This document shows, piece by piece, positions 6,611-22,870 of a stretch of DNA of 64,000 nt. The stretch lies in contig CAWGXL010000010.1 of assembly GCA_963826535.1 (NCBI GenBank), forward strand, positions 362,814-426,813, in the 5' to 3' direction. The stretch comes from an uncultured bacterium. Lineage in GTDB: Bacteria; Patescibacteriota; Microgenomatia; Levybacterales; UBA12049. The notes under the pieces are model-generated. The model saw only the letters and a program-made list of their open reading frames with translations. It had not been told where the DNA came from and did not search any database. Both the position numbers and the translations under genes were made by a program. Position 1 is the first letter of the stretch, and every line of letters begins with the position of its first letter.

Positions 6611-7047
6611 AAAAAACGATTATTACCAATTCATCTCAAGAGACACATAAACTGGGTGCCGATTTTGCCCGCAACATCAAAGGCATTGGTGTTCTTGCGC
6701 TCTATGGTGACCTTGGTAGTGGCAAAACAACTTTTATCCAGGGACTTGCAAAAGGCCTTGGTATTCAAAAAAATATTACTTCACCGACCTTTATAATTAT
6801 GAGATCATATAATATAAACCTCGATCATCAATCTTCAATCATCAACAATTTCTATCACATCGATTTATACAGAATAAAAAATGAAAAAGATACTCAGGAA
6901 CTTGGGTTAATCGAGCTTATGAAGGATTCACAAAACCTATTCGCCATCGAATGGCCGGAAAAAATAGAAAAATTATTACCAAGGATAACAAAAAGACTCT
7001 ATTTTAAATATATAGACGAAGACGTTCGAGAAATTAAAATAGTATAA
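6607..7047 (+). CDS. tsaE: tRNA threonylcarbamoyladenosine biosynthesis protein TsaE (YjeE)
   Basis: P-loop GDLGSGKTTF, ITSPTFIIM and HIDLYRI motifs typical of TsaE; ATGA overlap with the upstream gene. Confidence 0.8.
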   Translation: MKKTIITNSSQETHKLGADFARNIKGIGVLALYGDLGSGKTTFIQGLAKGLGIQKNITSPTFIIMRSYNINLDHQSSIINNFYHIDLYRIKNEKDTQELGLIELMKDSQNLFAIEWPEKIEKLLPRITKRLYFKYIDEDVREIKIV

Positions 7048-7085
7048 CTATCATTCCTTCTCCTTTTGAGAGAGGGAATTAACCA

Positions 7086-7667
7086 ATGAATAAAAATATA
7101 CAACAAGCAATAAAAATCTTAAACCAGGGTGGTATAATTATTTTTCCCACAGACACAGCCTTTGGTATCGGTTGCCGCATTGATAATGAAAAAGCAATAC
7201 AAAGATTATTCCAAATTCGCAAAAGACCTGAAAATCAAGCCACACCAGTATTAGTTGAAAATTTAAACATGGCCCGGCAATATCTTCTTCTTATTCAGGA
7301 TAAAGTAGTCGATAAATTAATAAATCGTTACTGGCCTGGAGCATTAACAATTATTTTACCTTGTAAGAAAGTAAAAATTCCCAATCTTGTTAGGGGAAAT
7401 AGTGACAACCTTGGCGTCCGCATGCCAAATCATCGAATTTCTCTTTCCATAATTCAAGCTGTCGGTGTTCCTATTCTTGGTCCATCTGCTAATTTACATG
7501 GCGAAAAAACACCTTACCAAAATGAGGATTTAGACAAAGCGCTAACTAAAAAAGTAGATTTTGTAGTTGAGGGAGTATGCACAATAAAACAAGAGTCAAC
7601 AGTAATAAATTGTTCAATAAACCCCTGGAAAATATTAAGACAGGGCGCTATAAAAATAAATATTTAA
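7086..7667 (+). CDS. tsaC: L-threonylcarbamoyladenylate synthase (TsaC/YrdC/Sua5 domain)
   Basis: IIFPTDTAFGIGC... YrdC-fold signature; 193 aa single-domain form. Confidence 0.8.
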   Translation: MNKNIQQAIKILNQGGIIIFPTDTAFGIGCRIDNEKAIQRLFQIRKRPENQATPVLVENLNMARQYLLLIQDKVVDKLINRYWPGALTIILPCKKVKIPNLVRGNSDNLGVRMPNHRISLSIIQAVGVPILGPSANLHGEKTPYQNEDLDKALTKKVDFVVEGVCTIKQESTVINCSINPWKILRQGAIKINI

Positions 7668-7676
7668 CTAAAAATT

Positions 7677-8006
7677 ATGAAAATTATACTTTTTATCGAC
7701 ACCTCAAACAACATAGAGATTAAAGTAGGTATAATCCGAAATGAAAAAAAATATATTAAACGTCACAAACTTAATAAACAAAAAGCTCAAGCTGTTTTAC
7801 TCATGATAGAAAAATGTTTAAAGGATCACAAATTAACAATTAAAGATATTACAAAAATTAATATAAATTCCGGTCCTGGCTCATTTACCGGAATTCGCGT
7901 CGGTTTGGCTGTTGCAAATACACTCGCATTTCTACTCAAAATCCCAATTAATAAAAATCCTCTAGGCAAAATGGCTGAGCCGGTTTACTCAAAATTTAGC
8001 CCTTGA
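7677..8006 (+). CDS. tsaB: TsaB (YeaZ)-like protein, short form (109 aa, N-terminal domain only)
   Basis: MKIILFIDTS...GPGSFTGIRVGLAVANTLAF matches the TsaB/Kae1 N-terminal motif; follows tsaE-tsaC. Confidence 0.65.
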   Translation: MKIILFIDTSNNIEIKVGIIRNEKKYIKRHKLNKQKAQAVLLMIEKCLKDHKLTIKDITKININSGPGSFTGIRVGLAVANTLAFLLKIPINKNPLGKMAEPVYSKFSP

Positions 8007-8076: not shown

Positions 8077-9024
8077 ATGAGAAAGTTTTTTCACCATCTT
8101 TTTTTCCCTCATGCCTCAAACAATCATCGTTCCAAAGTCCTTCATCTGGATAGTTTGTTAATTACCATAGCAATATTAATCTTTACTTCCTTTCTTTTAT
8201 CGTCCCTACAGAAAGAATACCCCGAGGTGTTAGGAATATCAAACAATATTACTCCGATCGATTTGTTAAACATAACCAACCAGATCCGTCAGAAAAATGG
8301 ACTTTCTCATCTCAAACTCGACTCGGAGCTATCCCAAGCCGCGTCAAACAAAGCATCAGACATGTTCGCAAAAAATTATTGGTCACATGTCGCACCGGAT
8401 GGAGTCACGCCTTGGATATTTATCAAAAATTCGGGTTATGACTATCTCTATGCAGGTGAAAATTTGGGCAGAGGATTTTCCGGTGCATCGGAAGTTGTTG
8501 ATGCCTGGATGGCTAGCCCGTCACATCGGGATAATATGTTGTCTCCCAATTACAATGATGTTGGATATGCGATCGCAACCGGAGCATTAACCGGAAACGA
8601 TACAGTATTAGTTGTAGAAATGTTTGGAAGTAGATATGGACCAAAACAGACTGCACTAGCAGTAACAGTTAACAATTCAAATACGCCGGCCACGGATACG
8701 TCATCCACCCCGGCAGCTTTAATTATTACAAATAGTACACCTCAGCCATCGCAAACGCTATCATCGCCGGGGCCGGAACCAACGCCATTCCCTATTAAGC
8801 AAGTTGCTGCTATACAACAACAACCGTTAATCGATAAAAATGATTTCACTAAAAATATTGCAATTATTATTTTAGTGCTTTTTATCGTAACTCTGGCAAT
8901 AGATGCGTTTATCATTGAAAAGAAAAAAATTATTAGAGTAGTATCGCATAATCTTGATCATATTATCTATCTAATAATCATTCTATTGACTATTATTGTT
9001 ATAGGAAGAGGATTAGTACTCTAA
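8077..9024 (+). CDS. CAP/SCP/PR-1 domain protein with N-terminal TM and C-terminal TM/Ser-Pro-rich linker
   Basis: YWSHVAPDG...AGENLG...WMASPSHRDNML...GYA CAP-domain motifs. Confidence 0.65.
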   Translation: MRKFFHHLFFPHASNNHRSKVLHLDSLLITIAILIFTSFLLSSLQKEYPEVLGISNNITPIDLLNITNQIRQKNGLSHLKLDSELSQAASNKASDMFAKNYWSHVAPDGVTPWIFIKNSGYDYLYAGENLGRGFSGASEVVDAWMASPSHRDNMLSPNYNDVGYAIATGALTGNDTVLVVEMFGSRYGPKQTALAVTVNNSNTPATDTSSTPAALIITNSTPQPSQTLSSPGPEPTPFPIKQVAAIQQQPLIDKNDFTKNIAIIILVLFIVTLAIDAFIIEKKKIIRVVSHNLDHIIYLIIILLTIIVIGRGLVL

Positions 9025-9281
9025 TGATACAACGATTACGAATACATCTAAAATATTACTTAGCACTGATTTTCCTGCAAATTGCAGGCTTCTTCATTCT
9101 TCTGTCACTCTCGGGTAACAGAGAGCTTCAAATCTCGGTTATTATCGGCTCGACTTTCGTATATGTAGGCTGGGCAATTCTCCATCAATACGTTGAGCAT
9201 AGCTTAACTACAAAAATAGTGGTAGAATATGTGTTATTCGGAGTTTTCGGATTAATAGTTTCATTAATATTCTTTAAATAG
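9024..9281 (+). CDS. Small integral membrane protein (3 TM), unknown function
   Basis: ATGA overlap with the upstream stop; hydrophobic helices. Confidence 0.4.
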   Translation: MIQRLRIHLKYYLALIFLQIAGFFILLSLSGNRELQISVIIGSTFVYVGWAILHQYVEHSLTTKIVVEYVLFGVFGLIVSLIFFK

Positions 9282-9339: not shown

Positions 9340-10077
9340 ATGAAAGGTATTATATTGGCTGGTGGTAAAGCAACAAGACTTCTTCCATTGACGAAGATCA
9401 CTTCAAAGCAATTATTGCCCATTTACAATAAACCAATGATATTTTATCCTCTAGAGACTCTACTTATTGCTGGAGTAAAAGATATCCTAATTATTATCTC
9501 CCCGGAATACTCCGGTCATTTTTTAAATCTTTTAGGATCAGGTAAAGAATTTAACGCAAATTTTACTTATGAAATTCAGGAAGAGCCACGAGGTCTTGCT
9601 GACGCATTTATAGTGGGAGAAAATTTTATTAAAGATGATAATGTAACTATGATTTTAGGAGATAATATTTTTGATTATAATTTTACTCAGGAGATAAAAA
9701 ATTTTCAAAGCGGAGGACATATTTTTGCGATTAAAGTCCCGGATCCTCAAAGATATGCCGTAGTTGAATTTGATGAAGCAGGAAAGGCTTTATCTATTGT
9801 TGAGAAGCCCCAAAATCCAAAAAGCGATTATGCTGTTCCCGGAATTTATATATTTGATAAAAGGGCATCAGAATTTGCAAAAAAAATAACTCCATCCGAG
9901 CGGGGAGAGTTGGAAATAACATCTCTTTATAACCAGTATCATACACTTAAAGAGTTGAAAGTCAGTGCACTTGATTGTATATGGGAAGATGCAGGGACCT
10001 TTGATAGTCTGATCCGGGCTGGTAATTTTATGTATGAAAAATTTAAGAAAGGGGGTAAGCAAAATGAGCAACACTAG
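9340..10077 (+). CDS. rmlA: Glucose-1-phosphate thymidylyltransferase-like sugar nucleotidyltransferase (RmlA, short form)
   Basis: MKGIILAGGKATRLLPLTKITSKQLLPI motif; sits in the rml cluster. Confidence 0.7.
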   Translation: MKGIILAGGKATRLLPLTKITSKQLLPIYNKPMIFYPLETLLIAGVKDILIIISPEYSGHFLNLLGSGKEFNANFTYEIQEEPRGLADAFIVGENFIKDDNVTMILGDNIFDYNFTQEIKNFQSGGHIFAIKVPDPQRYAVVEFDEAGKALSIVEKPQNPKSDYAVPGIYIFDKRASEFAKKITPSERGELEITSLYNQYHTLKELKVSALDCIWEDAGTFDSLIRAGNFMYEKFKKGGKQNEQH

Positions 10078-10507
10078 AATAGAGGATGCAAAAAAAGTTA
10101 TAACCTACGATCACGAAAAAAAAGAAAATGGCTGGCTTATAGAACTCTTTAAAGACAAAGAAACCGGTCTAAAAACCGAGGCCTATTTGACCTCTGCTCT
10201 TCCGGGAGCTTTCAAAGGCTATCATCTCCACCGGGTAAGAGCCGCCAGATATGTTTGTTTAAAAGGAAAAATTAAAATTACGACTTACGAAAGGGAAAAT
10301 AATGCGTGGGTTAAAGCAGAAAACGTTTTAGATGCATCAACACCCAAACGTTTATTTATTCCAAAAGACACAGCAACCGGACTTGAAAATATAGGTTCAG
10401 AAGAGGCTTGGCTGGTAAACTATCCCGACCCGCCATACGATCCCAGCTTAAAAGACGAACAAGTCGAATATACTAAAGAAGAATTAGAAAGTGGGATTGT
10501 CAAATAA
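10064..10507 (+). CDS. rmlC: dTDP-4-dehydrorhamnose 3,5-epimerase-like cupin (RmlC family, short)
   Basis: Good SD (AAGGGGG) before the ATG at 10064; GYHLH...R.....G.I and LFIPKDTATG...Y.D..YDP resemble RmlC motifs; rml neighbours. Confidence 0.55.
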   Translation: MSNTRIEDAKKVITYDHEKKENGWLIELFKDKETGLKTEAYLTSALPGAFKGYHLHRVRAARYVCLKGKIKITTYERENNAWVKAENVLDASTPKRLFIPKDTATGLENIGSEEAWLVNYPDPPYDPSLKDEQVEYTKEELESGIVK

Positions 10508-10565
10508 ATAAAATAACAATTGCTTGGCTCTTGTTTTCAACTAAAAATATGGTAAAATAACTTCC

Positions 10566-10829
10566 ATGAGTGAAAGGGTCAGGTCATATTTCGAACCAAT
10601 AGATAACATTCCTACAATAGCTCATGGCTATCCGGGAGTAAAAGTCGGTGTAGAATTTGATGGAAAAATAATGTATCATCGTAAAATTACCTCACATTTC
10701 GTAACGTTAGAGAGATTCGCGTATGTCCCCAAACCTTTATATCAGTTTAGAAAAGATCTCGCAAAAGAAAAGGCACGAACAATGTCAAGCAATTTGAAAG
10801 ATTATGCTTCTAACTCCAAAGAGAAATAA
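10566..10829 (+). CDS. Hypothetical protein (87 aa)
   Basis: ORF inside the rml cluster; no recognisable motif. Confidence 0.35.
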   Translation: MSERVRSYFEPIDNIPTIAHGYPGVKVGVEFDGKIMYHRKITSHFVTLERFAYVPKPLYQFRKDLAKEKARTMSSNLKDYASNSKEK

Positions 10830-10925
10830 CACATTTAATGTGCATTCCATAAAGCGACTAAATCATTTGCACATATAATAAATAAAGCCCTATTTCAATT
10901 TTGAATTCTACTGTATAATATAGAA

Positions 10926-11942
10926 ATGAAACTCTTTGTAACAGGCGGTGCGGGCTTTATCGGATCCAATTTCATTCTTTACTGGATGAAAAAATATTCC
11001 CAGGATTACATTGTTAATTTTGATAAATTAACGTACGCAGGCAATTTAGAAAATCTCAAAGAAGTTGAAAAAAACCCAAATTATTCATTTATCCATGGCG
11101 ATATTTGTGACAACAAATTAGTAAATAATTCACTACAGGGAATAGACACCATTGTTCACTTCGCTGCCGAAAGCCATGTTGACAGATCCATTATGGATGC
11201 CTCGCCCTTTATCATGACCAACGTGCTGGGCACTCAGATACTTTTGGACGCTGCGCTGAAAAACAACATACAGCGTTTTCATCACATCTCAACCGATGAA
11301 GTATTTGGAGCTCTTGAATTAAATGATTCCCATAAGTTCAATGAGCAAACCACCTATAATCCCCGCAGCCCCTACGCGGCTAGCAAAGCCTCCTCAGACC
11401 ATTTAGTGCGGGCTTATCATGTGACTTACGGTTTACCCATAAGTATAACTAATTGCTCTAATAATTTTGGCCCTTACATGTTTCCAGAAAAATTTATCCC
11501 TTTATCTATTACAAATCTGTTAGAAAACAAGAAAATACCTGTTTATGGCGACGGCCAATACGTACGGGATTGGCTATATGTTGAAGACCATTGCCGGGCA
11601 ATTGATGTGGTTCTATCAAAAGGCAAAGTAGGAGAAACATATGTTGTAGGAGGGATGACTGAAGTTTATCCGAACATTGAAATTGCGAAAAAGATCATTA
11701 AACTTTTAGGGAAAGACGACACTTTTATAGAATTTGTAAAAGACCGGCCTGGACATGATAGAAAATATGATGTTGATTGGTCAAAAATTAAAAACGAGCT
11801 AGGTTGGCAGCCATTACATAATTTTGATGAGTGGTTGGTGAAAACTGTTGACTGGTATAAAGATAACAAAGAGTGGTGGCAGCATATTAAATCCGGAGTC
11901 TACAAAGAATATTATGCTAAACAATACGGAACTACTAAGTAA
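10926..11942 (+). CDS. rmlB: dTDP-glucose 4,6-dehydratase
   Basis: MKLFVTGGAGFIGSNF Rossmann motif, YAASKAS catalytic Tyr motif, 338 aa. Confidence 0.85.
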   Translation: MKLFVTGGAGFIGSNFILYWMKKYSQDYIVNFDKLTYAGNLENLKEVEKNPNYSFIHGDICDNKLVNNSLQGIDTIVHFAAESHVDRSIMDASPFIMTNVLGTQILLDAALKNNIQRFHHISTDEVFGALELNDSHKFNEQTTYNPRSPYAASKASSDHLVRAYHVTYGLPISITNCSNNFGPYMFPEKFIPLSITNLLENKKIPVYGDGQYVRDWLYVEDHCRAIDVVLSKGKVGETYVVGGMTEVYPNIEIAKKIIKLLGKDDTFIEFVKDRPGHDRKYDVDWSKIKNELGWQPLHNFDEWLVKTVDWYKDNKEWWQHIKSGVYKEYYAKQYGTTK

Positions 11943-12823
11943 TGAATAGTCAAAAAATAAAAATACTCACAATTGGTGGCTCAGGTCTCGTCGGTTCCCG
12001 CGTCAACGAATTACTTTCAGTAAATAATATAATCGACAATTTCTCTACAAAATCCGGATTAGATATAACGCAGCCTAATTCCCTGGCAGTCATAGAGAAA
12101 GATAGGGAACACCAATATATTTTACTATATGCTGCTAAAACTGATGTTGATGCTTGTGAAAAAGACAAGGAATTAGGAGAGAGAGGAGAGGCATATAAAA
12201 TGAACGTTACAGGTGTTCAAAATGTTATAAATGCCGCTAAATCATCCAACAAAAAAATCATTTATATCTCAACTGATTTTGTATTTAATGGACTTAATAC
12301 ACCAGAAATAGGATATAACGAAGAAGACAAGCCCCATCCTATCAACTGGTATGGACAAACCAAATATTTAGGTGAAGAAGCAATTCGCGCCTCCGGATTG
12401 CCTTTCCTCATTATCCGTATAGCATATCCCTACCGAAAAGAATTTGCCGGGAAAAAAGATTTTACTCGTGCATTGCTTTCCCGCTTGCAAAACAATCTGA
12501 CAATCACTGCAGTTACCGACCATATTATGAACCCGACCTTTATCGATGACATTGCCGGCGCAATAGAAGTGCTCATCACACAAGATAAAGAAGGCGTGTT
12601 CCATGTTACAGGTAGTCAGAGTCTAAGTCCGTACGAGGCTGTTATTCAGATCGCGCAGGAATTTGGACTTGATAAATCTCTTATCTCACCAACCACTCGT
12701 GAAGTATTTTTCAAAGACCGAGCACCGCGCCCCTTTAATTTAAAGATGAATAATGATAAAATACGCAGATTAGGTATAAAGTTGAGATCGTTTAATGAAG
12801 GACTTAAATTTCTTAAGTCTTAA
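11942..12823 (+). CDS. rmlD: dTDP-4-dehydrorhamnose reductase
   Basis: ILTIGGSGLVGSRV, RmlD-like length and motifs, TAATG overlap with rmlB. Confidence 0.75.
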   Translation: MNSQKIKILTIGGSGLVGSRVNELLSVNNIIDNFSTKSGLDITQPNSLAVIEKDREHQYILLYAAKTDVDACEKDKELGERGEAYKMNVTGVQNVINAAKSSNKKIIYISTDFVFNGLNTPEIGYNEEDKPHPINWYGQTKYLGEEAIRASGLPFLIIRIAYPYRKEFAGKKDFTRALLSRLQNNLTITAVTDHIMNPTFIDDIAGAIEVLITQDKEGVFHVTGSQSLSPYEAVIQIAQEFGLDKSLISPTTREVFFKDRAPRPFNLKMNNDKIRRLGIKLRSFNEGLKFLKS

Positions 12824-12832
12824 ATCTAATAT

Positions 12833-14155
12833 ATGACCATCACATTCATCGGACACGGATATGTAGGATTAGTTTCGGCTACGGTTTTCGCGGATTTAGG
12901 AAATAAAGTCTGGGTTATAGGACATACCCCAAAAAAAATTGAAAATTTAAAAAAAGGTATTATCCCGATTTATGAACCCGGATTGCAGGAATTGGTAAAA
13001 CGCAATATCGATGCAAAACGACTCTTATTTACACTAGATTATAAACCGGCAATTTCACAATCTGAAGTAATTTTTATAGCTGTCGGTACTCCGTCCGCCG
13101 ATAATGGGGAAGCAGATCTATCGGAAATATATAATGTTGCAGGCAAAATCGGACAACATCTGGATAAATACGCTGTTGTTATAACCAAAAGTACAGTACC
13201 GGTCGGAACCAACGAAAAAGTGAGACAGATTATTAAAAAAGTAAAAAGCAAAAACATTGAATTTGATATAGCTTCAGTCCCTGAATTTTTACGCGAAGGA
13301 CAAGCAATTTCTGATACATTATCACCGGATAGAATCGTTATAGGTACAGATTCAAAAAAAGCAGAGAAAATCTTAATAGACCTACATAGACCGCTTGTAA
13401 CCAAAGAAGAAAAAATTGATCGCCGGCTAATTCTTACTGATATCAAATCATCTGAGTTGATTAAATATGCATCCAATGCTCTTCTTGCGACAAAAATATC
13501 CTTTGCCAATGCTATTGCCCAATTATCTGAGAGGGTTGGTGCAGATGGTTTAAAAGTATTACAAGCTGTAGGCCACGACAAAAGAATAGGTTCATCTTTT
13601 CTCAATCCCGGAGCTGGTTATGGAGGAAGTTGTTTCCCCAAAGATGTAAAAGCCCTTATCGCAATTGCAGCTAACCACGGATATGATTTTAATTTACTTA
13701 AAAGTGTTCAAAAAATCAATCAAGACGCTATGCTAAAAGTAGTATCCAAAGCAAAACAACTTTTAAATGATAATCTTAAAGATCAAACAATTGCAGTTCT
13801 TGGATTATCATTCAAACCCGACACAGATGATATGCGCGATGCGCCATCTATTACAATTATTCCTGAGTTGTTACGCCTTGGCGCGAAAATCAAGACTTAC
13901 GACCCAATTGCTATGGAAAATGCCAAAAAAATATTTGCAAATGAAAAAAACATCCAATTCCCGGATGATTTATATACGACAACTAAAAACGCGGATTTAC
14001 TCATAATTTTAACCGAGTGGAATGAATTTCAGCAACTCGATTTAAAAAAAGTAAAAACACTCATGAAAAAAGCAAACATAATTGACGGAAGAAACATCTA
14101 TGACCCAACTATTGTTAAAAAATTAGGATTTAATTATATTGGTGTTGGTAGATGA
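12833..14155 (+). CDS. ugd: UDP-glucose 6-dehydrogenase
   Basis: ITFIGHGYVGL N-terminal Rossmann, GGSCFPKDV catalytic Cys motif, 440 aa. Confidence 0.9.
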   Translation: MTITFIGHGYVGLVSATVFADLGNKVWVIGHTPKKIENLKKGIIPIYEPGLQELVKRNIDAKRLLFTLDYKPAISQSEVIFIAVGTPSADNGEADLSEIYNVAGKIGQHLDKYAVVITKSTVPVGTNEKVRQIIKKVKSKNIEFDIASVPEFLREGQAISDTLSPDRIVIGTDSKKAEKILIDLHRPLVTKEEKIDRRLILTDIKSSELIKYASNALLATKISFANAIAQLSERVGADGLKVLQAVGHDKRIGSSFLNPGAGYGGSCFPKDVKALIAIAANHGYDFNLLKSVQKINQDAMLKVVSKAKQLLNDNLKDQTIAVLGLSFKPDTDDMRDAPSITIIPELLRLGAKIKTYDPIAMENAKKIFANEKNIQFPDDLYTTTKNADLLIILTEWNEFQQLDLKKVKTLMKKANIIDGRNIYDPTIVKKLGFNYIGVGR

Positions 14156-14277
14156 CCCTCCTTCGTTAAAACTACGGACGGGTCATGCCTCCGAAGCTTT
14201 ATGCAAAATAATACAGAGTATGAAAAAATAACAAAATTTCTATTTATAGTTAAATTTGGAAAGGCAAGCGAAGGGGC

Positions 14278-15234
14278 ATGAAAAAAATATTAATTACAGG
14301 AGCTTCTGGATTCGCGGGAGGCTACTTAAGCGAATATCTAAATGCTCAGAACAAGTTCGATATTTATGGAACGTATCATCAGGAAAAAAGCTTAGATCAA
14401 TCTCCGGTTAAAGAAAAAATACAATTTAAGAAAATAGATTTACTTGATTTTCCGAGTGTATTAAATTTAATAAATGAGATAAAGCCTGACTTACTTTTTC
14501 ATCTGGCAGGCGCAGCATCCCCCGCAAAAAGCTTTACTGATCCTACTGGTACATTCGCTGCTAATGTTAATTCGCAAATTAATATCCTTGAAGCAGTGAC
14601 TAAAAATAAATTACTTAAATCAAGAATACTAATAATCTCTTCAGCTGAAGTTTATGGTCAGGTATCACCAACAGAACTTCCAATTGATGAAGATACGCCA
14701 CTCCGCCCTTCAAGTCCTTATGCTGTTTCGAAACTTGCTCAGGATTTTTTAGGTTTACAATATCACCTCTCTTATAAATTACAGTGTATACGAGTCCGTC
14801 CATTTAATCATATCGGTCCCCGACAAAGTACCAAATTTGTCGTAGCGGATTTCTCCAAACAAATCGCAGAAATTGAAAAAGGGGTGAAAGAACCAATTAT
14901 ATTTGTCGGTAATTTAGAAGCCAAAAGAGATTTTACGGATGTTCGTGACATGGTCAAAGCATATTGTATGGTGCAAGAACTAGGGACTCCGGGGGAAGTA
15001 TATAATATTGGGTCTGGAATCTCCCATAGCGCGAATGAGATACTGAATATCCTCTTAAGATTGACAAAGTCCAAAATCTCGATCAAAGTCGATCCTCAAA
15101 AATTAAGACCCAGTGATACACCTGATATAAAATGTAACAATAAAAAACTTACAAACCTGACAGGCTGGCAACCAATCATTCCCTTAGAACAAACACTACA
15201 AGACACTCTGGACTATTGGCGTAATATTGTATAG
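14278..15234 (+). CDS. rmd: GDP-4-keto-6-deoxy-D-mannose reductase-like SDR (Rmd-like)
   Basis: ITGASGFAGGYL, SPYAVSKLA, RPFNHIGPRQ and RDFTDVRD resemble Rmd; immediately upstream of gmd. Confidence 0.65.
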   Translation: MKKILITGASGFAGGYLSEYLNAQNKFDIYGTYHQEKSLDQSPVKEKIQFKKIDLLDFPSVLNLINEIKPDLLFHLAGAASPAKSFTDPTGTFAANVNSQINILEAVTKNKLLKSRILIISSAEVYGQVSPTELPIDEDTPLRPSSPYAVSKLAQDFLGLQYHLSYKLQCIRVRPFNHIGPRQSTKFVVADFSKQIAEIEKGVKEPIIFVGNLEAKRDFTDVRDMVKAYCMVQELGTPGEVYNIGSGISHSANEILNILLRLTKSKISIKVDPQKLRPSDTPDIKCNNKKLTNLTGWQPIIPLEQTLQDTLDYWRNIV

Positions 15235-15287
15235 AATAAAAGTCATAATTTATTAAATATTAGTAATCAATTTTTAATTATCAACCT

Positions 15288-16259
15288 ATGAAACGTGCAC
15301 TTATTACTGGGATTACCGGACAAGACGGCCCATATCTTGCAGAGTTCCTGCTTTCAAAAGGATACAAAGTCTACGGCACGGTTCGCCGCCTTAGCACTCC
15401 AAATCTTGAAAATATTCAGCATATTCGTGAACAAGTAGAGCTGCTTTCCGCCGATCTGCTTGACACATCCTCCTTAACCGAAGCAATTGTTGAGTCCGAA
15501 CCTGATGAAGTTTATAACCTTGCGGCTATGTCTTTTGTAAAAGCCTCCTTTGAGCAGCCGGTTTTAACCGGAGAATTTACAGCTCTGGGTGTAACTCGGC
15601 TTTTAGAGGCAATTCGCTCGGTAAACAAAAAGATAAAATTTTACCAGGCATCCAGTTCGGAAATGTTTGGTAAAGTGACAGAAGCCCCACAAAAAGAAAC
15701 TACAAGATTTCACCCACGAAGCCCCTATGGTGTCGCAAAAGTATACGGCCACTACATTACAGTTAATTATCGTGAAAGCTATGACATGTTTGCTTGCTCG
15801 GGAATATTATTCAATCACGAATCACCGCGCCGGGGAATTGAATTCGTTACCAGAAAAATAAGTAATAGTGTTGCCAGAATTCGTTTGCACAAGCAGGAAA
15901 AATTAATCCTTGGTGACTTATCGCCCAAGCGCGATTGGGGATATGCCGGCGATTATGTAGAAGCAATGTGGCTTATGCTCCAGCAAAAAAAACCGGATGA
16001 TTACGTCGTCGGAACAGGTAAAAATCACAGTGTTAAAGAGTTTATAGAATTAGCGTTTAAATACGTCGGTATTACCGATTGGCAAAATTATGTCATTTCC
16101 AACCACCCAAAACACATGCGCCCCGCCGAAGTAGACAATCTCATCGCCGATTACAGCAAGGCAAAAAAAGTCCTAGGCTGGAAACCAAAAACCACATTCA
16201 AAGAACTTGTAGAAATGATGGTAAAATCCGACCTCGACCGCGAAAAGCAACGAAAATAA
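15288..16259 (+). CDS. gmd: GDP-mannose 4,6-dehydratase
   Basis: ALITGITGQDGPYLAEFLL...GTVRR hallmark of Gmd. Confidence 0.85.
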   Translation: MKRALITGITGQDGPYLAEFLLSKGYKVYGTVRRLSTPNLENIQHIREQVELLSADLLDTSSLTEAIVESEPDEVYNLAAMSFVKASFEQPVLTGEFTALGVTRLLEAIRSVNKKIKFYQASSSEMFGKVTEAPQKETTRFHPRSPYGVAKVYGHYITVNYRESYDMFACSGILFNHESPRRGIEFVTRKISNSVARIRLHKQEKLILGDLSPKRDWGYAGDYVEAMWLMLQQKKPDDYVVGTGKNHSVKEFIELAFKYVGITDWQNYVISNHPKHMRPAEVDNLIADYSKAKKVLGWKPKTTFKELVEMMVKSDLDREKQRK

Positions 16260-16276
16260 AATTTAGCGAATTAATA

Positions 16277-16304
16277 TTGACAATTCAATTAAATCTGCTA
16301 AACT
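16277..16304 (+). promoter_or_regulatory. Predicted sigma70-type promoter (TTGACA, 16 nt spacer, extended -10 TGcTAAACT) for the small lipoprotein gene
   Basis: Near-identical copy at 16668..16695. Confidence 0.5.
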
Positions 16305-16319
16305 CATTCAATACAATTT

Positions 16320-16619
16320 ATGAAAGAACTACCCATCACTGGAGCTATATTAGCACTTGCTTTAACATCTGGATGTAACTATGAACAAGAGGTTCAAATT
16401 AATGATGTACTTGGTCCAAGTCTAAAAAAACTACTAAAAGAAGAGTGTCGATCAGTAACTATATACCAACAAGATGCTGATAATATAGGCGTAACGTTAG
16501 AATGTGCGGGCAAAGATAATAATCTGAAATATCTTTCCTGTCATGAATTCAATTTAACTCTTGATTGCACTACAGATAAGTTTACATTACCTCATAAATC
16601 GCAGAAATTTCTCCTCTGA
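16320..16619 (+). CDS. Small lipoprotein (99 aa), lipobox LTSGC
   Basis: Signal peptide and lipobox; four Cys; paralogous to 16806..17093. Confidence 0.55.
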   Translation: MKELPITGAILALALTSGCNYEQEVQINDVLGPSLKKLLKEECRSVTIYQQDADNIGVTLECAGKDNNLKYLSCHEFNLTLDCTTDKFTLPHKSQKFLL

Positions 16620-16667
16620 ACTTTGTTGCTATAATGGACTCCTCCGGGAAATAACCTCAAATTAATA

Positions 16668-16695
16668 TTGACAATGCAATTAAATATGCTAAACT
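16668..16695 (+). promoter_or_regulatory. Second copy of the promoter (TTGACA ... TGcTAAACT)
   Basis: Block 16659..16736 duplicates 16268..16322. Confidence 0.5.
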
Positions 16696-16805
16696 CACTT
16701 TACAATATTCTATAGAACTCAAAGTCAAAAATTATGTGAGAGATTTTCCAAAACCCAACTTTTAGAAGAGCATTTACTGGATTTACACTTGCTTCTTCAT
16801 TAGTA

Positions 16806-17093
16806 ATGAGTGAGCATGCCTTAAGTCAGGAGCAAGCTAAGTCACAACCTCAAAGAAACAGGCTTATGCAGACACAAGAAGCTCCAGCACTACCTGAAAA
16901 TGCACTAGAAAAATCTAAAGCTCTCATTACTGGCACGGTTGTACACAAATTAATAAAAGATGGATGTAAATCTATACTTATCACACCAGAAAATGAAAAT
17001 TTACAACTTACCATAGAATGCGCTTCACGAGACGACATTCCGAAAGATGTTCCACCGGCGCCTAGACCGTCTGAGACTAGAAAAGACTTCTAA
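16806..17093 (+). CDS. Paralogue of the small lipoprotein; signal-peptide region disrupted (ATG-TGA at 16734..16739)
   Basis: Shares the L.KL.K..C.S..I...N...T.ECA..D pattern with 16320..16619. The in-frame upstream sequence encodes the remnant signal peptide FTGFTLASSLV after an ATG followed directly by TGA. Confidence 0.45.
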   Translation: MSEHALSQEQAKSQPQRNRLMQTQEAPALPENALEKSKALITGTVVHKLIKDGCKSILITPENENLQLTIECASRDDIPKDVPPAPRPSETRKDF

Positions 17094-17128
17094 AATACAC
17101 TCTCTTATATGCTATATTATAAGTAAGG

Positions 17129-18112
17129 ATGATTCATGATTTTGCCGCCGATTATTACTACGCGGAACAACGAAAATCCAAAAAAACAATATTTCTACGA
17201 ATTTTAGTCTTATTCTTAATAATAGGACTTGTATATATTTCTATTAATAAAATATGGACACCCAAACCTGAAAAAAAGGTCGTCGCTGGTACAACAACAC
17301 AATTAATTAGTCCAACTCTGACCCAAATGATACAAGAGGATAAAGGATTAAGCCAGGTAGTACAAAATGCTCTATTTGGTACAAAAGGAAGCTATGGCAT
17401 AGTTATATTAAATTTAAAAACAAATGAATATTTTCTTCAAAATGAACACACTTCTTATAAAGCTGCAAGTTTATATAAATTATGGACTATGGCAACTGTT
17501 TTAGATCAGATTAATAATGGCAAACTGAACGAAAAGGATGTACTAAGCGAAAATATAGATGTATTATATGAAAAATTTCATCTGGCTTCTCCTTCTGCAA
17601 ATAAAAATATAACACTTTCTATAAATGATGCTTTGGAGAAAATGATAACTATCTCCGACAACCCCGCTGCTCTCTTGCTTTCAGCAAAAGTTAAACTATC
17701 AAATATCACGCAACTACTAAACAATAATGGTTTAATTGGTTCTAAACTAGGCACAGGAAGCGAATATCCAGTCACTACACCGCATGATATTGCCATCTTT
17801 CTTAAGAATTTATATGACGGAACTCTTGTAAACAAAGTAAATAGCGAAAAAATGTTGGCTGTTCTAAAACGCCAAAGATTGAATTCCAAGATCCCCAAAT
17901 ATTTACCTGACGAGTTAGTTATTGCTCATAAAACCGGTGAACTGGATGAATCTACTCATGATGCCGGTATTGTTTATACTCCACAAGGAGATTATATTAT
18001 TGTAGTTTTGTCCAAAAGTAATGCTGAATCACGTTTTTTAGCCGAGGAAAGAATAGCTAACTTATCCCTTGATGTATACAATTATTTTACCAAAAATACT
18101 AGTAACCTTTGA
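17129..18112 (+). CDS. Class A beta-lactamase-family serine hydrolase, membrane-anchored
   Basis: SxxK (SLYK), SDN and KTG motifs in canonical order; N-terminal TM. Confidence 0.7.
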   Translation: MIHDFAADYYYAEQRKSKKTIFLRILVLFLIIGLVYISINKIWTPKPEKKVVAGTTTQLISPTLTQMIQEDKGLSQVVQNALFGTKGSYGIVILNLKTNEYFLQNEHTSYKAASLYKLWTMATVLDQINNGKLNEKDVLSENIDVLYEKFHLASPSANKNITLSINDALEKMITISDNPAALLLSAKVKLSNITQLLNNNGLIGSKLGTGSEYPVTTPHDIAIFLKNLYDGTLVNKVNSEKMLAVLKRQRLNSKIPKYLPDELVIAHKTGELDESTHDAGIVYTPQGDYIIVVLSKSNAESRFLAEERIANLSLDVYNYFTKNTSNL

Positions 18113-18327
18113 AAAGTTTACTTATATGTGAGAGCCTAATATTTTATTGCGCCAGGAATTCTTGAAGCTTTCCGATTCTTTTGGAAATAAGTTGCACTAT
18201 AAATAAATTTTTCATAAACTCATGTCCGCTTTTGGAGAGAAAGGCTAATTAAAACCTATAACGCAACTTTAACTATTTAAAACTCCTCTATTTAAAAGTA
18301 GGCTGAATTTTAGTATCATTGTAAAGT

Positions 18328-19290
18328 ATGCCAAAAGCACTTATCGCAGGCGGAGCCGGATTTATCGGTAGCCATCTCTCTAATAATCTAATTAAAAATG
18401 GATATACTGTATATTGTTTAGACAATTTAATTACGGGTAGTAAAACAAATATAATTAGCCTGCAAGACAATCCTAATTTTATGTTTTTCAACCACGATAT
18501 TACAACCGCACTAACGCCGATCTCAGAGCGTTTAGATGATGTTGATTATATCTTTCATCTTGCCTCACCTGCATCACCAAATAAGAATAGTGAAAAAAGC
18601 TATATAAACTTACCAATTGAAACAATGCTGGCCAATTCACTCGGTACATACAATCTTCTGATGCTTGCCAAAGCTAAAAACGCAAAGTTTCTTTTTGCAT
18701 CTACATCTGAAATATATGGCAATCCGGCAGTTTCCCCCCAACCGGAAAGCTATTTCGGTAATGTCAATCCCAATGGTATCCGGTCAGTTTATGACGAGGC
18801 AAAAAGATTCGGAGAAGCTTTAACATTTGCATTCATACGTAAATATAATCTCGACGCAAGAATAATTAGAATATTCAATACCTACGGACCTAAAATGCAA
18901 AAAGACGATGGTCGTGTAATTTCTAATTTCATCAATCAAGCCTTAGAAAGAATTCCTCTTACCATATTTGGTGACGGTACCCAAACTAGAAGCTTTTGTT
19001 ACATAGAGGATATGATTGATGGAATATTATCTGCAATGTGGACATTAAACACAAAAGGAGAAATAATAAATCTTGGAAATCCTGACGAGCGAACTATCAA
19101 AGAAATTGCTGCCATAACAAAAGAGTTAATTGGTAGCACTTCTCAAATAATAAATGAACAGCCCTCACCCGAAGACCCCCAAAGGCGAAAGCCTGACATA
19201 GACAAAGCTAAAAAGTTATTAAAATGGGAACCAAAGATTTCCCTTGAGGATGGATTAAAAAAAACAATAGAGTATTTTAGAAACATATGA
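18328..19290 (+). CDS. uxs: UDP-glucuronate decarboxylase (UDP-xylose synthase-like SDR)
   Basis: LIAGGAGFIGSHL, YDEAKRFGE catalytic motif, 320 aa. Confidence 0.75.
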   Translation: MPKALIAGGAGFIGSHLSNNLIKNGYTVYCLDNLITGSKTNIISLQDNPNFMFFNHDITTALTPISERLDDVDYIFHLASPASPNKNSEKSYINLPIETMLANSLGTYNLLMLAKAKNAKFLFASTSEIYGNPAVSPQPESYFGNVNPNGIRSVYDEAKRFGEALTFAFIRKYNLDARIIRIFNTYGPKMQKDDGRVISNFINQALERIPLTIFGDGTQTRSFCYIEDMIDGILSAMWTLNTKGEIINLGNPDERTIKEIAAITKELIGSTSQIINEQPSPEDPQRRKPDIDKAKKLLKWEPKISLEDGLKKTIEYFRNI

Positions 19291-20513
19291 AAATTGTAGT
19301 AATTCTCCCAACTTTTAACGAGCGGGAAAATATCAAAAAACTCATTCCTATTTTAGAAGAAAAAATATTTCCCAATATCAAAAAGCATGATATGAATATC
19401 CTAATAGTCGATGATAAATCACCTGACGGAACAGAGGAAGAAATAAATGAAATAATGAAAAAATGGAAGAATATTAGTCTTAACAGCGGAGTAAAACAAG
19501 GCCTTGGGGCAGCATATGTACGTGGCATGACTTATGCTATTGATAAAATGAACGCAGATGTAATTTTTGAAATGGACGCAGATTTACAACATGATCCAAC
19601 AAAAATACCTGATTTTCTTAAAAAAATCGACGAGGGTTATGATATGGTCATTGGCACAAGGTACAGTGAAGGTGGTTCGATACCAAAAAACTGGCCTCCG
19701 CTAAGAAAAGCATTTTCAATTATTGCCAATATTTTTGTTAGAACAGTTTTTTTGAATTTTTCTATTCACGACTGGACCGGAGGATATAGAGCGCTTAAAA
19801 AAGAAGTTTTTCTAAAAGAAAAAAATGAATTACAGCAATACAGCGGCTATATTTTTCAGATATCTTTTTTACATAAAGCCATAAGAGATAAATTTAAAAT
19901 AGGTGAAGTACCTTTTCATTTTTCAGACCGTGAACAAGGACGAACGAAGATTGCACCTTTAGGGTACATTATGGAAGTAGTTAAATTTGTTATTTTGACA
20001 AGGATAAATCAATATAAACGTTTTATCAAATTTCTTTTTGTTGGAGGAACCGGCTTTATTGTGCAAGTAGTTACACAAGAAGCAACCATACATTTAGGCA
20101 TTACAATTTTTCTCACAAATATTTTATCTAACTATAATTTAGTAAGTGACATAACATCAGTTTCGCATTCAATTGGTGCCGCATTTGGTGCGGAAGCCGC
20201 AATAATTTCCAATTTTCTCTTCAACAATTTTTGGACTTTTGACGATACCAGAAAATTAAAGGAAAAATCTAGATTTATTGTTAGAGCTATAACATTCAAT
20301 TTCGCTTCGCTTGGATCTATTTTCATTCAAGCTCTGGTAGTTTTCATTGCCGAAAAGTCACTTGGTGAGTATACATACCTTTTTTCTCAACAACTTCCTA
20401 CCAGATTGCTTGTCATAATTCCGACTATTTTAATATTTGTTATTCCTTTAAATTATTTTATTTATAATTTTGTAATCTGGAAAACTCATCATCTCAAAAA
20501 TAAAAAGGATTAA
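19287..20513 (+). CDS. GT2 polyprenyl-phosphate sugar synthase (Dpm1/ArnC-like) fused to a C-terminal GtrA-like TM domain
   Basis: N-terminal GT-A motifs (ILPTFNE, VDDKSPDGT, DADLQH) and a four-TM GtrA-like C-terminus; ATGA overlap with uxs. Confidence 0.7.
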   Translation: MKIVVILPTFNERENIKKLIPILEEKIFPNIKKHDMNILIVDDKSPDGTEEEINEIMKKWKNISLNSGVKQGLGAAYVRGMTYAIDKMNADVIFEMDADLQHDPTKIPDFLKKIDEGYDMVIGTRYSEGGSIPKNWPPLRKAFSIIANIFVRTVFLNFSIHDWTGGYRALKKEVFLKEKNELQQYSGYIFQISFLHKAIRDKFKIGEVPFHFSDREQGRTKIAPLGYIMEVVKFVILTRINQYKRFIKFLFVGGTGFIVQVVTQEATIHLGITIFLTNILSNYNLVSDITSVSHSIGAAFGAEAAIISNFLFNNFWTFDDTRKLKEKSRFIVRAITFNFASLGSIFIQALVVFIAEKSLGEYTYLFSQQLPTRLLVIIPTILIFVIPLNYFIYNFVIWKTHHLKNKKD

Positions 20514-20515
20514 TT

Positions 20516-22072
20516 ATGAGTAAAAGACTACTTCTTATTTTACTTATTATTATTATTTTTCTAGCAGCCTTTCTTCGCCTCTATAACATATCAGCTTATA
20601 TGCAATTTCTTGGTGATGAAGGAAGAGACGTGCTTGTGGCTAAAGACATCCTCAATGGTCAGTTTACCTTACTTGGTCCCAGGTCTTCGGCCGGAGACTT
20701 TTATATGGGGCCTTTATATTATTATCTCATTACACCTTTTCTGCTACTTTTCAATTATGACCCTGTTGGGCCTGCAATCATGGTAGCGCTTTTCGGAGTT
20801 GCAACGGTTTTTCTGATCTACAAAGTTGGTAGTAAATTTTTTAATAGGGAGGCAGGACTTTTTGCAGCTGCCTTATATTCGGTTTCTCCGTTAGTTCTTG
20901 CTTACTCACATTCCTCGTGGAATCCTGACATTCTACCCTTTTTCGCTTTGTTACTAATATATACAATTTATACAACCGTCAAGGATAAAAAAACCTGGAG
21001 ATATTTTCTTTTTATTGGTATTCTACTTGGTATATGTTTACAACTTCACTACCTGTCTCTCTTTTTAGTTATTATTACAGTCATTTATATCTTAATAACC
21101 CACCAATTAACACATAGAAAAATAATTTTCCTCCCATTATTAAAAAACTATATAGGGATATTTCTAGGAACTATTATCAGTCTTTCCCCTCTTATTCTTT
21201 TCGAATTACGACACAATTTCCTCAATTCAAGAGGGATTCTTAACTTTATCTTTGGTGAAACTGTAAGTTATACTGCGAACACTAATTTTTTTCTAACCGT
21301 AGCCGAAGTATTTTTCCGTATTTTCGCCCGACTTATATTCAATTTCCCACCACCTGATAAAGTCTTTCAATTCACCCAGATACATTTAACAATATGGGGT
21401 GGATTAGCACTGGTATTTGCCATAGCGTCTATATTAGTCCTATTTTTACAAAAAAATAAACTGGTATCCCTTCTATTTGGTTTGTGGCTTTTTATCAGCA
21501 TTCTGTTATTTGGATTTTACAAGAAGGAGATACATGATTACTTGTTTACATTTATTTTCCCATTGCCATTTCTACTTATAGGAAATCTTTTAAGTTATAT
21601 ATATCACTTTTCCAAACCAAAACATGCACTTTTCAAATTTATCAGTCTAATTCTTTTTACTGCTATTTTGATTGTTAACCTTCTCGACATACCTTTTCGT
21701 TATGAACCAAACAATCAAAGAGATCAAACTAAAAAAATTGCGCAATTTATAATCACTAAAGTTGAAAACAAACCACACAATTTTGCACTATTATCCGCAG
21801 GTAATTCCGACTATGCATACCGGTATTATCTGGATTTATTAGGACACCCGCCGGTTATACTGGAAAATCTAGAGAAGGATCCCCAGCGCGACACAGTTAC
21901 AGGTCAGCTCTTTATAGTCTGTGAATACCTCGAATGCAACCCCATTGGCCACCCCCTCCACGACATAGCCGCCTTCGGCCGCGCCGAAATCGCAGGAGAA
22001 TGGAATGTATCAGTAGTAAAAGTATATAAATTAATTCCCTACACTCCACCACCTGGACTTAACGAAAAATAA
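20516..22072 (+). CDS. GT-C glycosyltransferase of the ArnT/PMT family (GT83/GT39-like)
   Basis: Polytopic; DEGRD-like loop motif after TM1 (FLGDEGRDVLVA); 518 aa; directly follows the GT2 gene. Confidence 0.7.
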   Translation: MSKRLLLILLIIIIFLAAFLRLYNISAYMQFLGDEGRDVLVAKDILNGQFTLLGPRSSAGDFYMGPLYYYLITPFLLLFNYDPVGPAIMVALFGVATVFLIYKVGSKFFNREAGLFAAALYSVSPLVLAYSHSSWNPDILPFFALLLIYTIYTTVKDKKTWRYFLFIGILLGICLQLHYLSLFLVIITVIYILITHQLTHRKIIFLPLLKNYIGIFLGTIISLSPLILFELRHNFLNSRGILNFIFGETVSYTANTNFFLTVAEVFFRIFARLIFNFPPPDKVFQFTQIHLTIWGGLALVFAIASILVLFLQKNKLVSLLFGLWLFISILLFGFYKKEIHDYLFTFIFPLPFLLIGNLLSYIYHFSKPKHALFKFISLILFTAILIVNLLDIPFRYEPNNQRDQTKKIAQFIITKVENKPHNFALLSAGNSDYAYRYYLDLLGHPPVILENLEKDPQRDTVTGQLFIVCEYLECNPIGHPLHDIAAFGRAEIAGEWNVSVVKVYKLIPYTPPPGLNEK

Positions 22073-22082
22073 TAGGAGATTA

Positions 22083-22870
22083 TTACTTAATAGCTTTTAA
22101 AGAAAACAATAGGGGTACTTGGATCTTTTTGTTTTTCATGACATATTGTCCCTTTTCATTTTTCTCCATAAATCCGGGAAACTGATCATACATGGAGAAC
22201 GGAAATTCATGGAAAAATTCTATTTTTAAATTTTCACTTAGTAATGAATTTATGAGATCTCCAATAGTATAATTCCACAAATATGTATTACCTTTAATGT
22301 TGGCGTTCCAATCAGCATATGTACCGGTTGAATCATCAATGTCCGGCCCTTTTTTAAAATATTTATATTGAATTTTGAAATCGCTAGTCAGTATATTCGT
22401 GAATGGATGAAGTTCTACAATATAAAAAGTGCCACCGTCTTTGAGGTAATGATTTATTAATTTTGCCCATTTCTTAATATTTGAAATCCATATTAGAACA
22501 CCGTAAGACGCAAATATAATATCAAATTGCTTATTAAGTTTTTTTGGAAGCTCATTGATATCTGCACATATAAATTTAGCTGGTGCTTTTATTTCACGGC
22601 TTAATTTTTTAGCTAGCTTAATTGATCGTCAGAAATATCTACACCAGTAACTATAGCCCCTTCTCTCGCCCAAGATAAAGTGTCCATACCGAAATGACAC
22701 ATAAGATGCAAAAGAGATTTGCCATTCACACCAGCCAATTCCTCAACCTCTATAGACTGCAGACTGGATTGTCCATTTTTGAATCCGGTTAGATCATAGA
22801 GTTGAGAGTTTGCATGAATCGATGTAGCATCATTCCACCACTTTTTATTTACTTTCGCATAATCTTTCAT
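22083..22870 (-). pseudogene. Class I SAM-dependent methyltransferase interrupted by a single frameshift at an A6 run near 22618..22623
   Basis: N-terminal ORF 22613..22870 ends ...VDISDDQLS*. An adjacent frame continues IKLAKKLSREIKAPAKFICADI...FDIIFASYGVL... (MTase motifs II/III) through to 22083. Confidence 0.55.

Follow-up and report, generated by a model that had tools for sequence, protein, structure and literature searches.

A block of sugar genes in an uncultured bacterium of the Patescibacteriota (order Levybacterales) ends in two glycosyltransferase genes, which can be read, with moderate confidence, as encoding a polyprenyl-phosphate-mannose synthase and flippase (a GT2-GtrA fusion, here GT2) and a GT-C transferase that would act on an extracytoplasmic acceptor. 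The block, here called the island, lies at positions 9340-22072 on the + strand of a 64-kb stretch of contig CAWGXL010000010.1 (the window, with a G+C content of ~36%). Its 13 kb build four or five activated sugars and end in a lipid-carrier glycosylation module. An initial annotation had described the island as nucleotide-sugar genes feeding an ArnC/ArnT-like pair that uses xylose. As an observation this was confirmed, all of the claimed genes being present where it had placed them, on the + strand. Its interpretation held in part: the general lipid-carrier logic (a GT2, then a fused GtrA-type domain, then transfer by the GT-C on the outside), the synteny and the separation of the GT-C from protein O-mannosyltransferases (PMTs) all stood, whereas the ArnC-like nature of the GT2 did not and xylose became the less likely sugar. 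The module is best filed as an uncharacterised addition to the known class of polyprenyl-phosphate-sugar/GT-C systems, one in which a synthase of the dolichyl-phosphate mannose synthase (DPMS) type is combined with an ArnT-fold transferase in bacteria of the candidate phyla radiation (CPR).

CPR bacteria, whose genomes measure ~0.5-1.3 Mb, live attached to other cells, and next to nothing is known of their surface chemistry. That a 13-kb block has been kept across ~50% protein divergence argues for a specific surface glycan that is central to this lifestyle, and in this poorly known lineage the module can be seen as a conserved determinant of surface glycans. Its GT2 and GT-C also make a testable pair, which would either extend DPMS-type mannosylation to the CPR or introduce a new lipid-linked pentose donor.

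The identities of the genes, their domain architecture, the folds and the conservation of the island are results of the analysis; the donor sugar, the flipping step, the acceptor and the cooperation of the two proteins belong to a proposed mechanism, which can be outlined as follows. The cytoplasmic GT-A domain of the GT2 would transfer a sugar, most probably mannose from GDP-mannose, to polyprenyl phosphate. The fused four-helix GtrA/DPMS domain would hold the lipid and may help to flip it; a 2026 paper proposes that the membrane domain of the Pyrococcus furiosus DPMS (PfDPMS) could flip its own product. At the outer face of the membrane, the GT-C, with its ArnT-like fold, Asp-Glu pair in loop 1 and C-terminal outer domain, would then move the sugar to the acceptor. 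The upstream genes would supply a dTDP-L-rhamnose-type sugar, UDP-glucuronic acid (UDP-GlcA), UDP-xylose and GDP-D-rhamnose, presumably for the same surface glycan or glycans, and uxs, the UDP-xylose synthase gene, would be co-transcribed with the module.

A DPMS-type GT2 with a fused membrane domain

The GT2 gene (19287-20513, + strand) encodes a predicted type-III DPMS-like polyprenyl-phosphate glycosyltransferase, in which a GT-A domain (PF00535) is fused to a C-terminal four-helix GtrA/DPMS membrane domain (PF04138, GtrA_DPMS_TM; 36.6 bits against a cut-off of 26.1). Because Pfam itself names this membrane domain 'GtrA/DPMS', the fusion corresponds to the known type-III DPMS architecture (PMC5526996). 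Its best match in the PDB is PfDPMS (5mlz), with 116 bits and an E value of 2e-32 over residues 1-354; identity is 38.8% in the catalytic domain and 27%, with an insertion, in the membrane domain. A profile built from 32 orthologues scores 180 bits against PfDPMS (159 for the GT-A domain and 26 for the membrane domain), compared with 57-61 bits against ArnC and 48 bits against GtrB, and ArnC entries of the PDB reach 45-60 bits overall. The catalytic domain is also 37% identical to an unverified sequence of human DPM1. For comparison, PfDPMS shares 39% identity with human DPM1 (PMC5526996).

None of this fits the ArnC-like enzyme of the initial annotation. With the NCBIfam model for ArnC (NF007986), whose cut-off is 529, the GT2 scores 47 bits, the catalytic motif reads DADLQH rather than DADLQN, and the membrane domain is of the GtrA/DPMS type instead of two C-terminal transmembrane helices. 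The best NCBIfam match is PgfS, with 67 bits against a cut-off of 500. The annotation had named a combined result as speaking against it, a GT2 that groups with a GDP-mannose-using Dpm1 together with a GT-C that groups firmly with PMTs; the GT2 does group with Dpm1/DPMS over its whole length, and no such grouping was found for the GT-C. Judged by its sequence, then, the GT2 is a full-length type-III DPMS homologue and not ArnC-like.

The catalytic residues can be compared one by one. According to the structure paper on PfDPMS, the guanine is contacted by Asp39, Gly68 and Leu69; the motif 89-DADLQH-94 binds the metal and the O2 and O3 of mannose, the latter through Asp89 and His94; the lipid phosphate is contacted by Arg117, Arg131 and Ser135; and the gating loop contributes Glu12, Arg202 and Lys208. 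All of these residues are identical in the window GT2 and near invariant in the 84 orthologues surveyed, including those from loci that lack uxs. The window protein carries MDADLQHD, GTRY, R140 and S144, aligned to the motif and the acceptor-phosphate triad of PfDPMS. At its sixth position the motif has His in DPMS, as against Asn in ArnC and Asp in GtrB; of the 82 orthologues in which this position was counted, 75 have His and 7 have Phe. In these 7 loci the change from His to Phe is accompanied by a change from Gly to Gln at the position just before the conserved Arg125.

Two positions differ from PfDPMS. Its Phe177 and Lys178 are Tyr and Ile in the window, and the Lys178 position is Ile, Thr or Ala across the orthologues. 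The loss of this lysine was considered as a sign of a sugar without C6 and then dropped, human DPM1 (the unverified sequence) having GYVFQ where the window has GYIFQ. The replacement is not diagnostic, since human DPM1 appears to lack the lysine as well.

Among the relatives, the GT2 proteins can be divided into two types, A, with D[AS]DFQHD...GSR...[YN][YF]AYK, and B, with DADL[QSF]HD...GTR...GY[TI]FQ. Type B resembles human DPM1 and includes the window protein. The window's nearest relatives by GT-C (L002, L005 and L006), however, carry type A, and neighbour-joining trees of the GT2 and of the GT-C are discordant, which suggests that the GT2 cassette has been replaced between fixed uxs and GT-C flanks.

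A GT-C transferase with an ArnT-like fold

The gene that follows (20516-22072, + strand) encodes a GT-C glycosyltransferase of the PMT_2 family (PF13231, 63.5 bits against a cut-off of 26.1) with an ArnT-like fold. It has thousands of homologues, and those with names belong to Levybacteria, Roizmanbacteria or the 'Patescibacteria group'. A search of PDB sequences gave chance matches only. Its AlphaFold model (pLDDT 91.6, pTM 0.90) is a multi-helix membrane bundle followed by an alpha/beta C-terminal extracytoplasmic domain of ~120 aa, in line with the plan of ArnT, a GT-C fold of ~13 transmembrane helices with a C-terminal periplasmic domain. The top Foldseek matches are ArnT structures (5ezm and 5f15), with template modelling (TM) scores of 0.60-0.62 at 12-13% identity, followed by catalytic subunits of oligosaccharyltransferase and by ALG12. 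The arabinosyltransferases AftA, AftB and AftD score 0.40-0.55. PMTs lie at 0.35-0.49; Pmt4 reaches 0.49, and Pmt1/2 match over only ~260 residues. With ArnT as its best fold match, the GT-C is not firmly grouped with the PMTs, and a test for the PMT family (GT39) by profile agrees: PF02366, PF16192 and MIR were not matched, and PF13231 alone was.

Loop 1 of the protein contains a PMT-like Asp-Glu pair, D34 and E35, which is invariant. The loop reads GDEGRDV...GPRSSAGDFYMGP, in which GDEGRD is invariant, and further invariant positions include R56, SSWNP and HY. The ArnT family is marked by the first-loop motifs RYA and YFEKP (PMC5377068), neither of which was found in the GT-C sequence. As modelled, the protein has an ArnT-like fold but is not a strict ArnT, since these family motifs are absent.

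A rhodanese domain has been observed beside this transferase elsewhere. Some GT-C homologues (P0007 and P0013) carry a rhodanese domain (PF00581) as a C-terminal fusion, and in L002 a separate rhodanese gene (11545-11901 of that locus) lies directly 3' of the GT-C gene; none lies 3' of it in the window.

Conservation of the island and the choice of donor sugar

The conservation of the island was assessed in related genomes. When one genome was scanned for each GTDB species, 504 relatives were found, of which the best 80 were taken; their labels are mostly Levybacteria or Levyibacteriota. With four metagenome loci, these 80 species representatives gave a set of 84 loci (the codes run from L001 to L086), examined as 20-kb stretches by tblastn with the window proteins. 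The gene order of the island recurs in ~80 species-level genomes, far beyond chance. The order shared by the set is a CAP protein, a small membrane protein, rmlA, a cupin and/or NUDIX slot, rmlB, rmlD, ugd, rmd, gmd, uxs, GT2 and GT-C; the commonest architecture, ugd-rmd-gmd-uxs-GT2-GTC, is found in 56 loci, and the GT-C proteins share 47-69% identity.

The main competitor of mannose is xylose, the sugar of the initial annotation. A DPMS-like GT2 could have been re-tuned to UDP-xylose made by the coupled UXS, so that polyprenyl-phosphate-xylose would be formed and the GT-C would place the xylose on a surface protein or wall polymer. This would be ArnC/ArnT logic applied to a pentose without charge, and we regard it as possible, though less probable than mannose. 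The enzyme that would supply the donor is well defined. The uxs product (18328-19290, + strand), a short-chain dehydrogenase/reductase (SDR), matches human UXS1 (4gll) with an E value of 5e-93 and 315 bits, the next class being UDP-GlcA 4-epimerase at 155 bits. Aligned to human UXS1, it keeps the catalytic triad Thr118/Tyr147/Lys151 as well as Ser119, Glu120 and Arg277, which are specific to UXS (for their roles see PMC3438964), and its stretches ASTSE, YDEAKR and DPQRRKPD fall on the key residues. As far as sequence can tell, this is a genuine UDP-glucuronate decarboxylase, that is, a UDP-xylose synthase. GDP-mannose, for its part, must be produced in the cell, because Gmd and Rmd are encoded.

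The synteny that the initial annotation had asked for was found, uxs, GT2 and GT-C being adjacent in 75 of the 80 species-level relatives. Moreover, the junction between uxs and GT2 is unbroken in all 75 loci that bear uxs. The gap there has a median of 8 bp, and in about half of these loci the two genes overlap by 4 nt; the ATGA overlap in the window is real (19287-19290). Where islands are broken, the breakpoints cluster upstream of uxs and never fall between uxs and GT2. For instance, L002 has a 6.5-kb insertion there, L009 and L012 have insertions, and in eight loci gmd is inverted and different. This concentration of rearrangements upstream of uxs indicates that uxs-GT2-GTC acts as a module. 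Other junctions are almost equally stable, though, with one break each for ugd-rmd, rmd-gmd and rmlD-ugd in 65-71 loci.

Five loci (L019, L028, L044, L067 and L072) have no uxs, and in these, intact GT2 and GT-C genes come straight after gmd. In the trees of GT-C and GT2 they fall at no fewer than three different positions, beside relatives that bear uxs, and this scatter implies at least three independent losses of uxs, as scored at the locus. The donor-site residues of the GT2 are unchanged in them. In L044, moreover, the same 4-nt overlap is seen between gmd and GT2. Since the two overlaps are identical, the ATGA overlap is to be taken as ordinary operon compaction, not as evidence of substrate channelling.

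Sequence and structure, in short, favour a donor of the GDP-mannose type, while genomic context favours UDP-xylose. The former outweighs the latter because it is specific to the donor pocket, with the guanine and manno-type O2/O3 contacts of PfDPMS conserved, because at least three lineages can dispense with uxs beside the module and because the argument from the overlap fails. Several points nevertheless weigh against mannose. Donor specificity is unsafe to predict for a GT2 at 37-39% identity, and PfDPMS is itself somewhat promiscuous (structure paper). The Pfam name and the likeness to DPMS are uninformative on the acceptor. The uxs of the five genomes may sit elsewhere in the genome, and the broken islands (L002, L009, L012 and the eight with an inverted gmd) all keep uxs with GT2-GTC, in line with the uxs-GT2 junction that is never broken. 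The island holds no other transferase able to use UDP-xylose. Finally, the best fold match of the GT-C, ArnT, is a pentose transferase.

To our knowledge, lipid-phosphate-xylose activity is otherwise known only as an orphan dolichyl-phosphate D-xylosyltransferase reaction. Our literature search found no paper that links UDP-xylose to undecaprenyl or polyprenyl phosphate, and none that describes the island or these CPR enzymes. If xylose were indeed the carried sugar, the island would provide the first gene-level pathway to a lipid-phosphate-xylose donor, and GT2 types A and B, which are exchanged between lineages, might encode different sugar specificities, akin to serotype variation.

Outside the island, ~30 kb downstream, the window encodes a metal-independent alpha-mannosidase of family GH125 (52750-54072, - strand; 505 bits). 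This gene hints that mannose-containing glycans matter to the organism.

Probable pairing of the two transferases

The cooperation of the GT2 with the GT-C must also be weighed. The two could be neighbours by inheritance alone, the GT2 serving other GT-Cs or the GT-C using another donor, with the island as a depot of envelope sugars. The evidence for cooperation is all contextual and comes from one lineage; L015 and L058 have inserts of 1.8-2.7 kb that part GT2 from GT-C, and the discordance of the two trees, with a type B GT2 in the window and type A in its nearest GT-C relatives, points in the same direction. We still consider such independence unlikely. The pair is present in 83 loci, the gap having a median of 65 bp (2 nt in the window), and adjoins in 81 of them despite 35-50% protein divergence, and neither the 64-kb window nor the 20-kb loci showed a second GT2-GtrA or GT-C. 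Pairs of a polyprenyl-phosphate GT2 and a GT-C are, besides, the rule among systems that have been characterised (ArnC/ArnT, GtrB/GtrC, Ppm1/Pmt, GacI/GacL and CsbB/YfhO).

Less probable still is that the GT2 uses GDP-D-rhamnose from Gmd and Rmd to make polyprenyl-phosphate-D-rhamnose for the GT-C: the GDP-type pocket and manno-type O2/O3 contacts are conserved, the O4/O6-contacting Lys178 is replaced in all orthologues and rmd-gmd lie immediately upstream, with gmd directly abutting GT2 where uxs is missing, but human DPM1 (the unverified sequence) also lacks Lys178, split islands separate GT2-GTC from rmd-gmd and we know of no polyprenyl-phosphate-rhamnose synthase of the DPMS type.

Comparison with known systems

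The closest known relative of the GT2 is PfDPMS (5mlz, 5mm0 and 5mm1). Both proteins consist of an N-terminal GT-A domain and a C-terminal four-helix GtrA/DPMS domain, both domains align, and the DADLQH motif is conserved, as is every residue published for the donor, the metal, the acceptor phosphate and the A-loop. They differ at Phe177 and Lys178 and in the membrane domain, as described above, and in setting: the window gene sits behind uxs, and its activity is predicted from sequence. As the protein is bacterial, its lipid is presumably of the undecaprenyl type, unlike the dolichyl phosphate of PfDPMS.

The proposed combination of a bacterial polyprenyl-phosphate-mannose synthase with a GT-C follows the same logic as the actinobacterial Ppm1/Pmt system. 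There, the polyprenyl-phosphate-mannose synthase Ppm1 feeds GT-Cs mannosylating extracytoplasmic proteins or lipoglycans (see PMC3485146). In the window, by contrast, the neighbourhood is a nucleotide-sugar island, and the GT-C matches only PF13231 and is nearer in fold to ArnT than to the PMTs, whereas Pmt matches PF02366 and PF16192. Ppm1 is also without the fused GtrA domain of the window GT2.

The likeness to ArnC/ArnT lies in the general plan, a polyprenyl-phosphate GT2 followed by a GT-C, with a UDP-GlcA decarboxylase gene in the same operon. The GT-C resembles ArnT in fold, size, membrane bundle and small C-terminal outer domain. In the case of the GT2 the likeness ends with the DADLQH motif and the GtrA-type domain, ArnC having DADLQN and a two-helix membrane domain. 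Nor does the island contain genes for ArnA, ArnB, ArnD, ArnE or ArnF, and lipid A is not expected here.

A third comparison is with the three-component systems of Gram-positive bacteria, in which a GtrB-like GT2, a GtrA/GtcA flippase and a GT-C decorate wall polymers or surface proteins by way of a polyprenyl-phosphate sugar. Examples include CsbB/YfhO, GtlA/GtlB, GacI/GacL and, in S. mutans, PgfS/PgfE/PgfM1/PgfM2; the Pgf system includes an SDR sugar-nucleotide gene. Like the lineage studied here these are monoderm cells, and PgfS is the best NCBIfam match of the window GT2. Their GT2s, however, use UDP-hexoses or UDP-N-acetylhexosamines and have DADLQD-type motifs (GtrB), while the window GT2 has a fused GtrA domain and a catalytic domain of the DPMS type.

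These comparisons also bear on the acceptor. The lineage is monoderm-type, which makes lipid A unlikely. Ppm1/Pmt and the Gram-positive three-component systems suggest by analogy that a monoderm-type CPR bacterium free of lipopolysaccharide would attach the sugar to a surface protein or a wall polymer instead.

Nucleotide-sugar genes of the island

The genes upstream of the module, like the GT2 and GT-C genes themselves, are for the most part what they had been claimed to be: RmlA-like, RmlB, RmlD-like, Ugd, Rmd, Gmd, UXS, GT2-GtrA and GT-C are all supported by profile or PDB matches. RmlB, Gmd and Ugd pass curated cut-offs, and the RmlA-like and RmlD-like proteins have strong Pfam matches though they fall below the equivalog cut-offs. 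All of the genes below are on the + strand unless a - strand is given. The first (9340-10077) encodes a short RmlA-like sugar-1-phosphate nucleotidyltransferase (PF00483, 196 bits); its TIGR01207 score of 289 bits is below the cut-off of 360 because the protein has only 245 aa. RmlB, dTDP-glucose 4,6-dehydratase (10926-11942), scores 471 bits with TIGR01181 (cut-off 365), and an RmlD-like 4-keto reductase (11942-12823) scores 191 bits with PF04321 and 182 bits with TIGR01214 (cut-off 224). Ugd, UDP-glucose 6-dehydrogenase (12833-14155), reaches 458 bits with TIGR03026 (cut-off 190), its best equivalog model being TuaD at 532 bits. Rmd (14278-15234), an SDR and GDP-4-keto-6-deoxy-D-mannose reductase, matches PDB 2pk3, a GDP-6-deoxy-D-lyxo-4-hexulose reductase, with an E value of 1e-78 and 268 bits. 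Gmd, GDP-mannose 4,6-dehydratase (15288-16259), scores 427 bits with TIGR01472 (cut-off 415).

The exception is the claimed rmlC (10064-10507, 10064 being the true start), which is not a canonical RmlC. It encodes a small cupin, recognised by its AlphaFold fold and putatively an NDP-4-keto-6-deoxy-sugar epimerase, that has no match to PF00908, to an NCBIfam equivalog or, beyond chance, to PDB sequences. The model (pLDDT 90) best matches the 3-epimerase cupin domain of S. aureus CapF (TM score 0.62); RmlC and NovW rank below CapF, RmlC at about the 45th place. Homologues carry the source names 'RmlC-like' or 'WxcM-like', and in the relatives the slot is variable, being filled by a cupin of the window type, an FdtA-like cupin, a canonical RmlC-like protein and/or a NUDIX gene. 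Between the cupin gene and rmlB lies an orphan open reading frame (ORF) of 87 aa (10566-10829), with no tblastn match in 86 loci; the interval between rmlA and rmlD in the relatives usually holds a NUDIX gene instead.

The genes had also been called contiguous. Their order is as claimed, but strict contiguity does not hold, an insert and an additional gene lying between gmd and uxs. The insert, of ~870 bp (16269-17093), contains two small ORFs and two promoter-like repeat copies. A 38-nt direct repeat is present at 16269-16306 and 16660-16697, the copies being 95% identical, and each copy bears a promoter-like TTGACA-16-TGCTAAACT and precedes a small ORF. The two ORFs (16320-16619 and 16806-17093) resemble paralogues, and a lipoprotein-like signal, LALALTSGC, is present in the first. 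Neither has a Pfam match, nor a match in the 86 related loci, and the insert is specific to this genome. Next to it lies a gene for a membrane-anchored serine hydrolase of the Beta-lactamase2 family (17129-18112; 327 aa; PF13354, 154 bits); apart from the window, only L005 and L006, its two closest relatives, have this gene between gmd and uxs. A promoter and terminator scan of the whole island gave 61 promoter-like sites where shuffling led to an expectation of 58, and is uninformative since the count is at the level of shuffling.

Flanking genes

Just upstream of rmlA, the conserved first gene of the island (8077-9024) encodes a membrane-anchored CAP/SCP-domain protein (PF00188, 76 bits) with a Ser/Thr/Pro-rich linker. 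In at least 34 loci the gene is found upstream of rmlA. The linker was considered as evidence for an acceptor and set aside: it is 60% Ser/Thr/Pro in the window, but only 6 of 38 orthologues reach 50%. It is at best a hint at the acceptor, because its richness in these residues is inconsistently conserved. The gene that follows (9024-9281) overlaps the stop codon of the CAP gene (TAATG) and encodes an 85-aa protein with three transmembrane helices, as judged by eye. By tblastn it lies directly 3' of the CAP gene in 44 loci, and its product might serve the glycosylation machinery as a small partner subunit.

At the other end of the island, directly downstream of the GT-C gene on the - strand, two ORF fragments (22083-22280 and 22613-22870) look like the halves of a class-I S-adenosylmethionine-dependent methyltransferase, with a motif-I-like VTGVDISDDQL; this split gene is probably a pseudogene. 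Immediately upstream of the CAP gene, at 6607-8006, are genes for N6-threonylcarbamoyladenosine (t6A) synthesis (TsaE, Sua5/TsaC and a short TsaB/TsaD-like ORF). In L085 and L086, too, this place holds Sua5 and/or TsaD-like genes, so that the synteny reaches past the sugar island.

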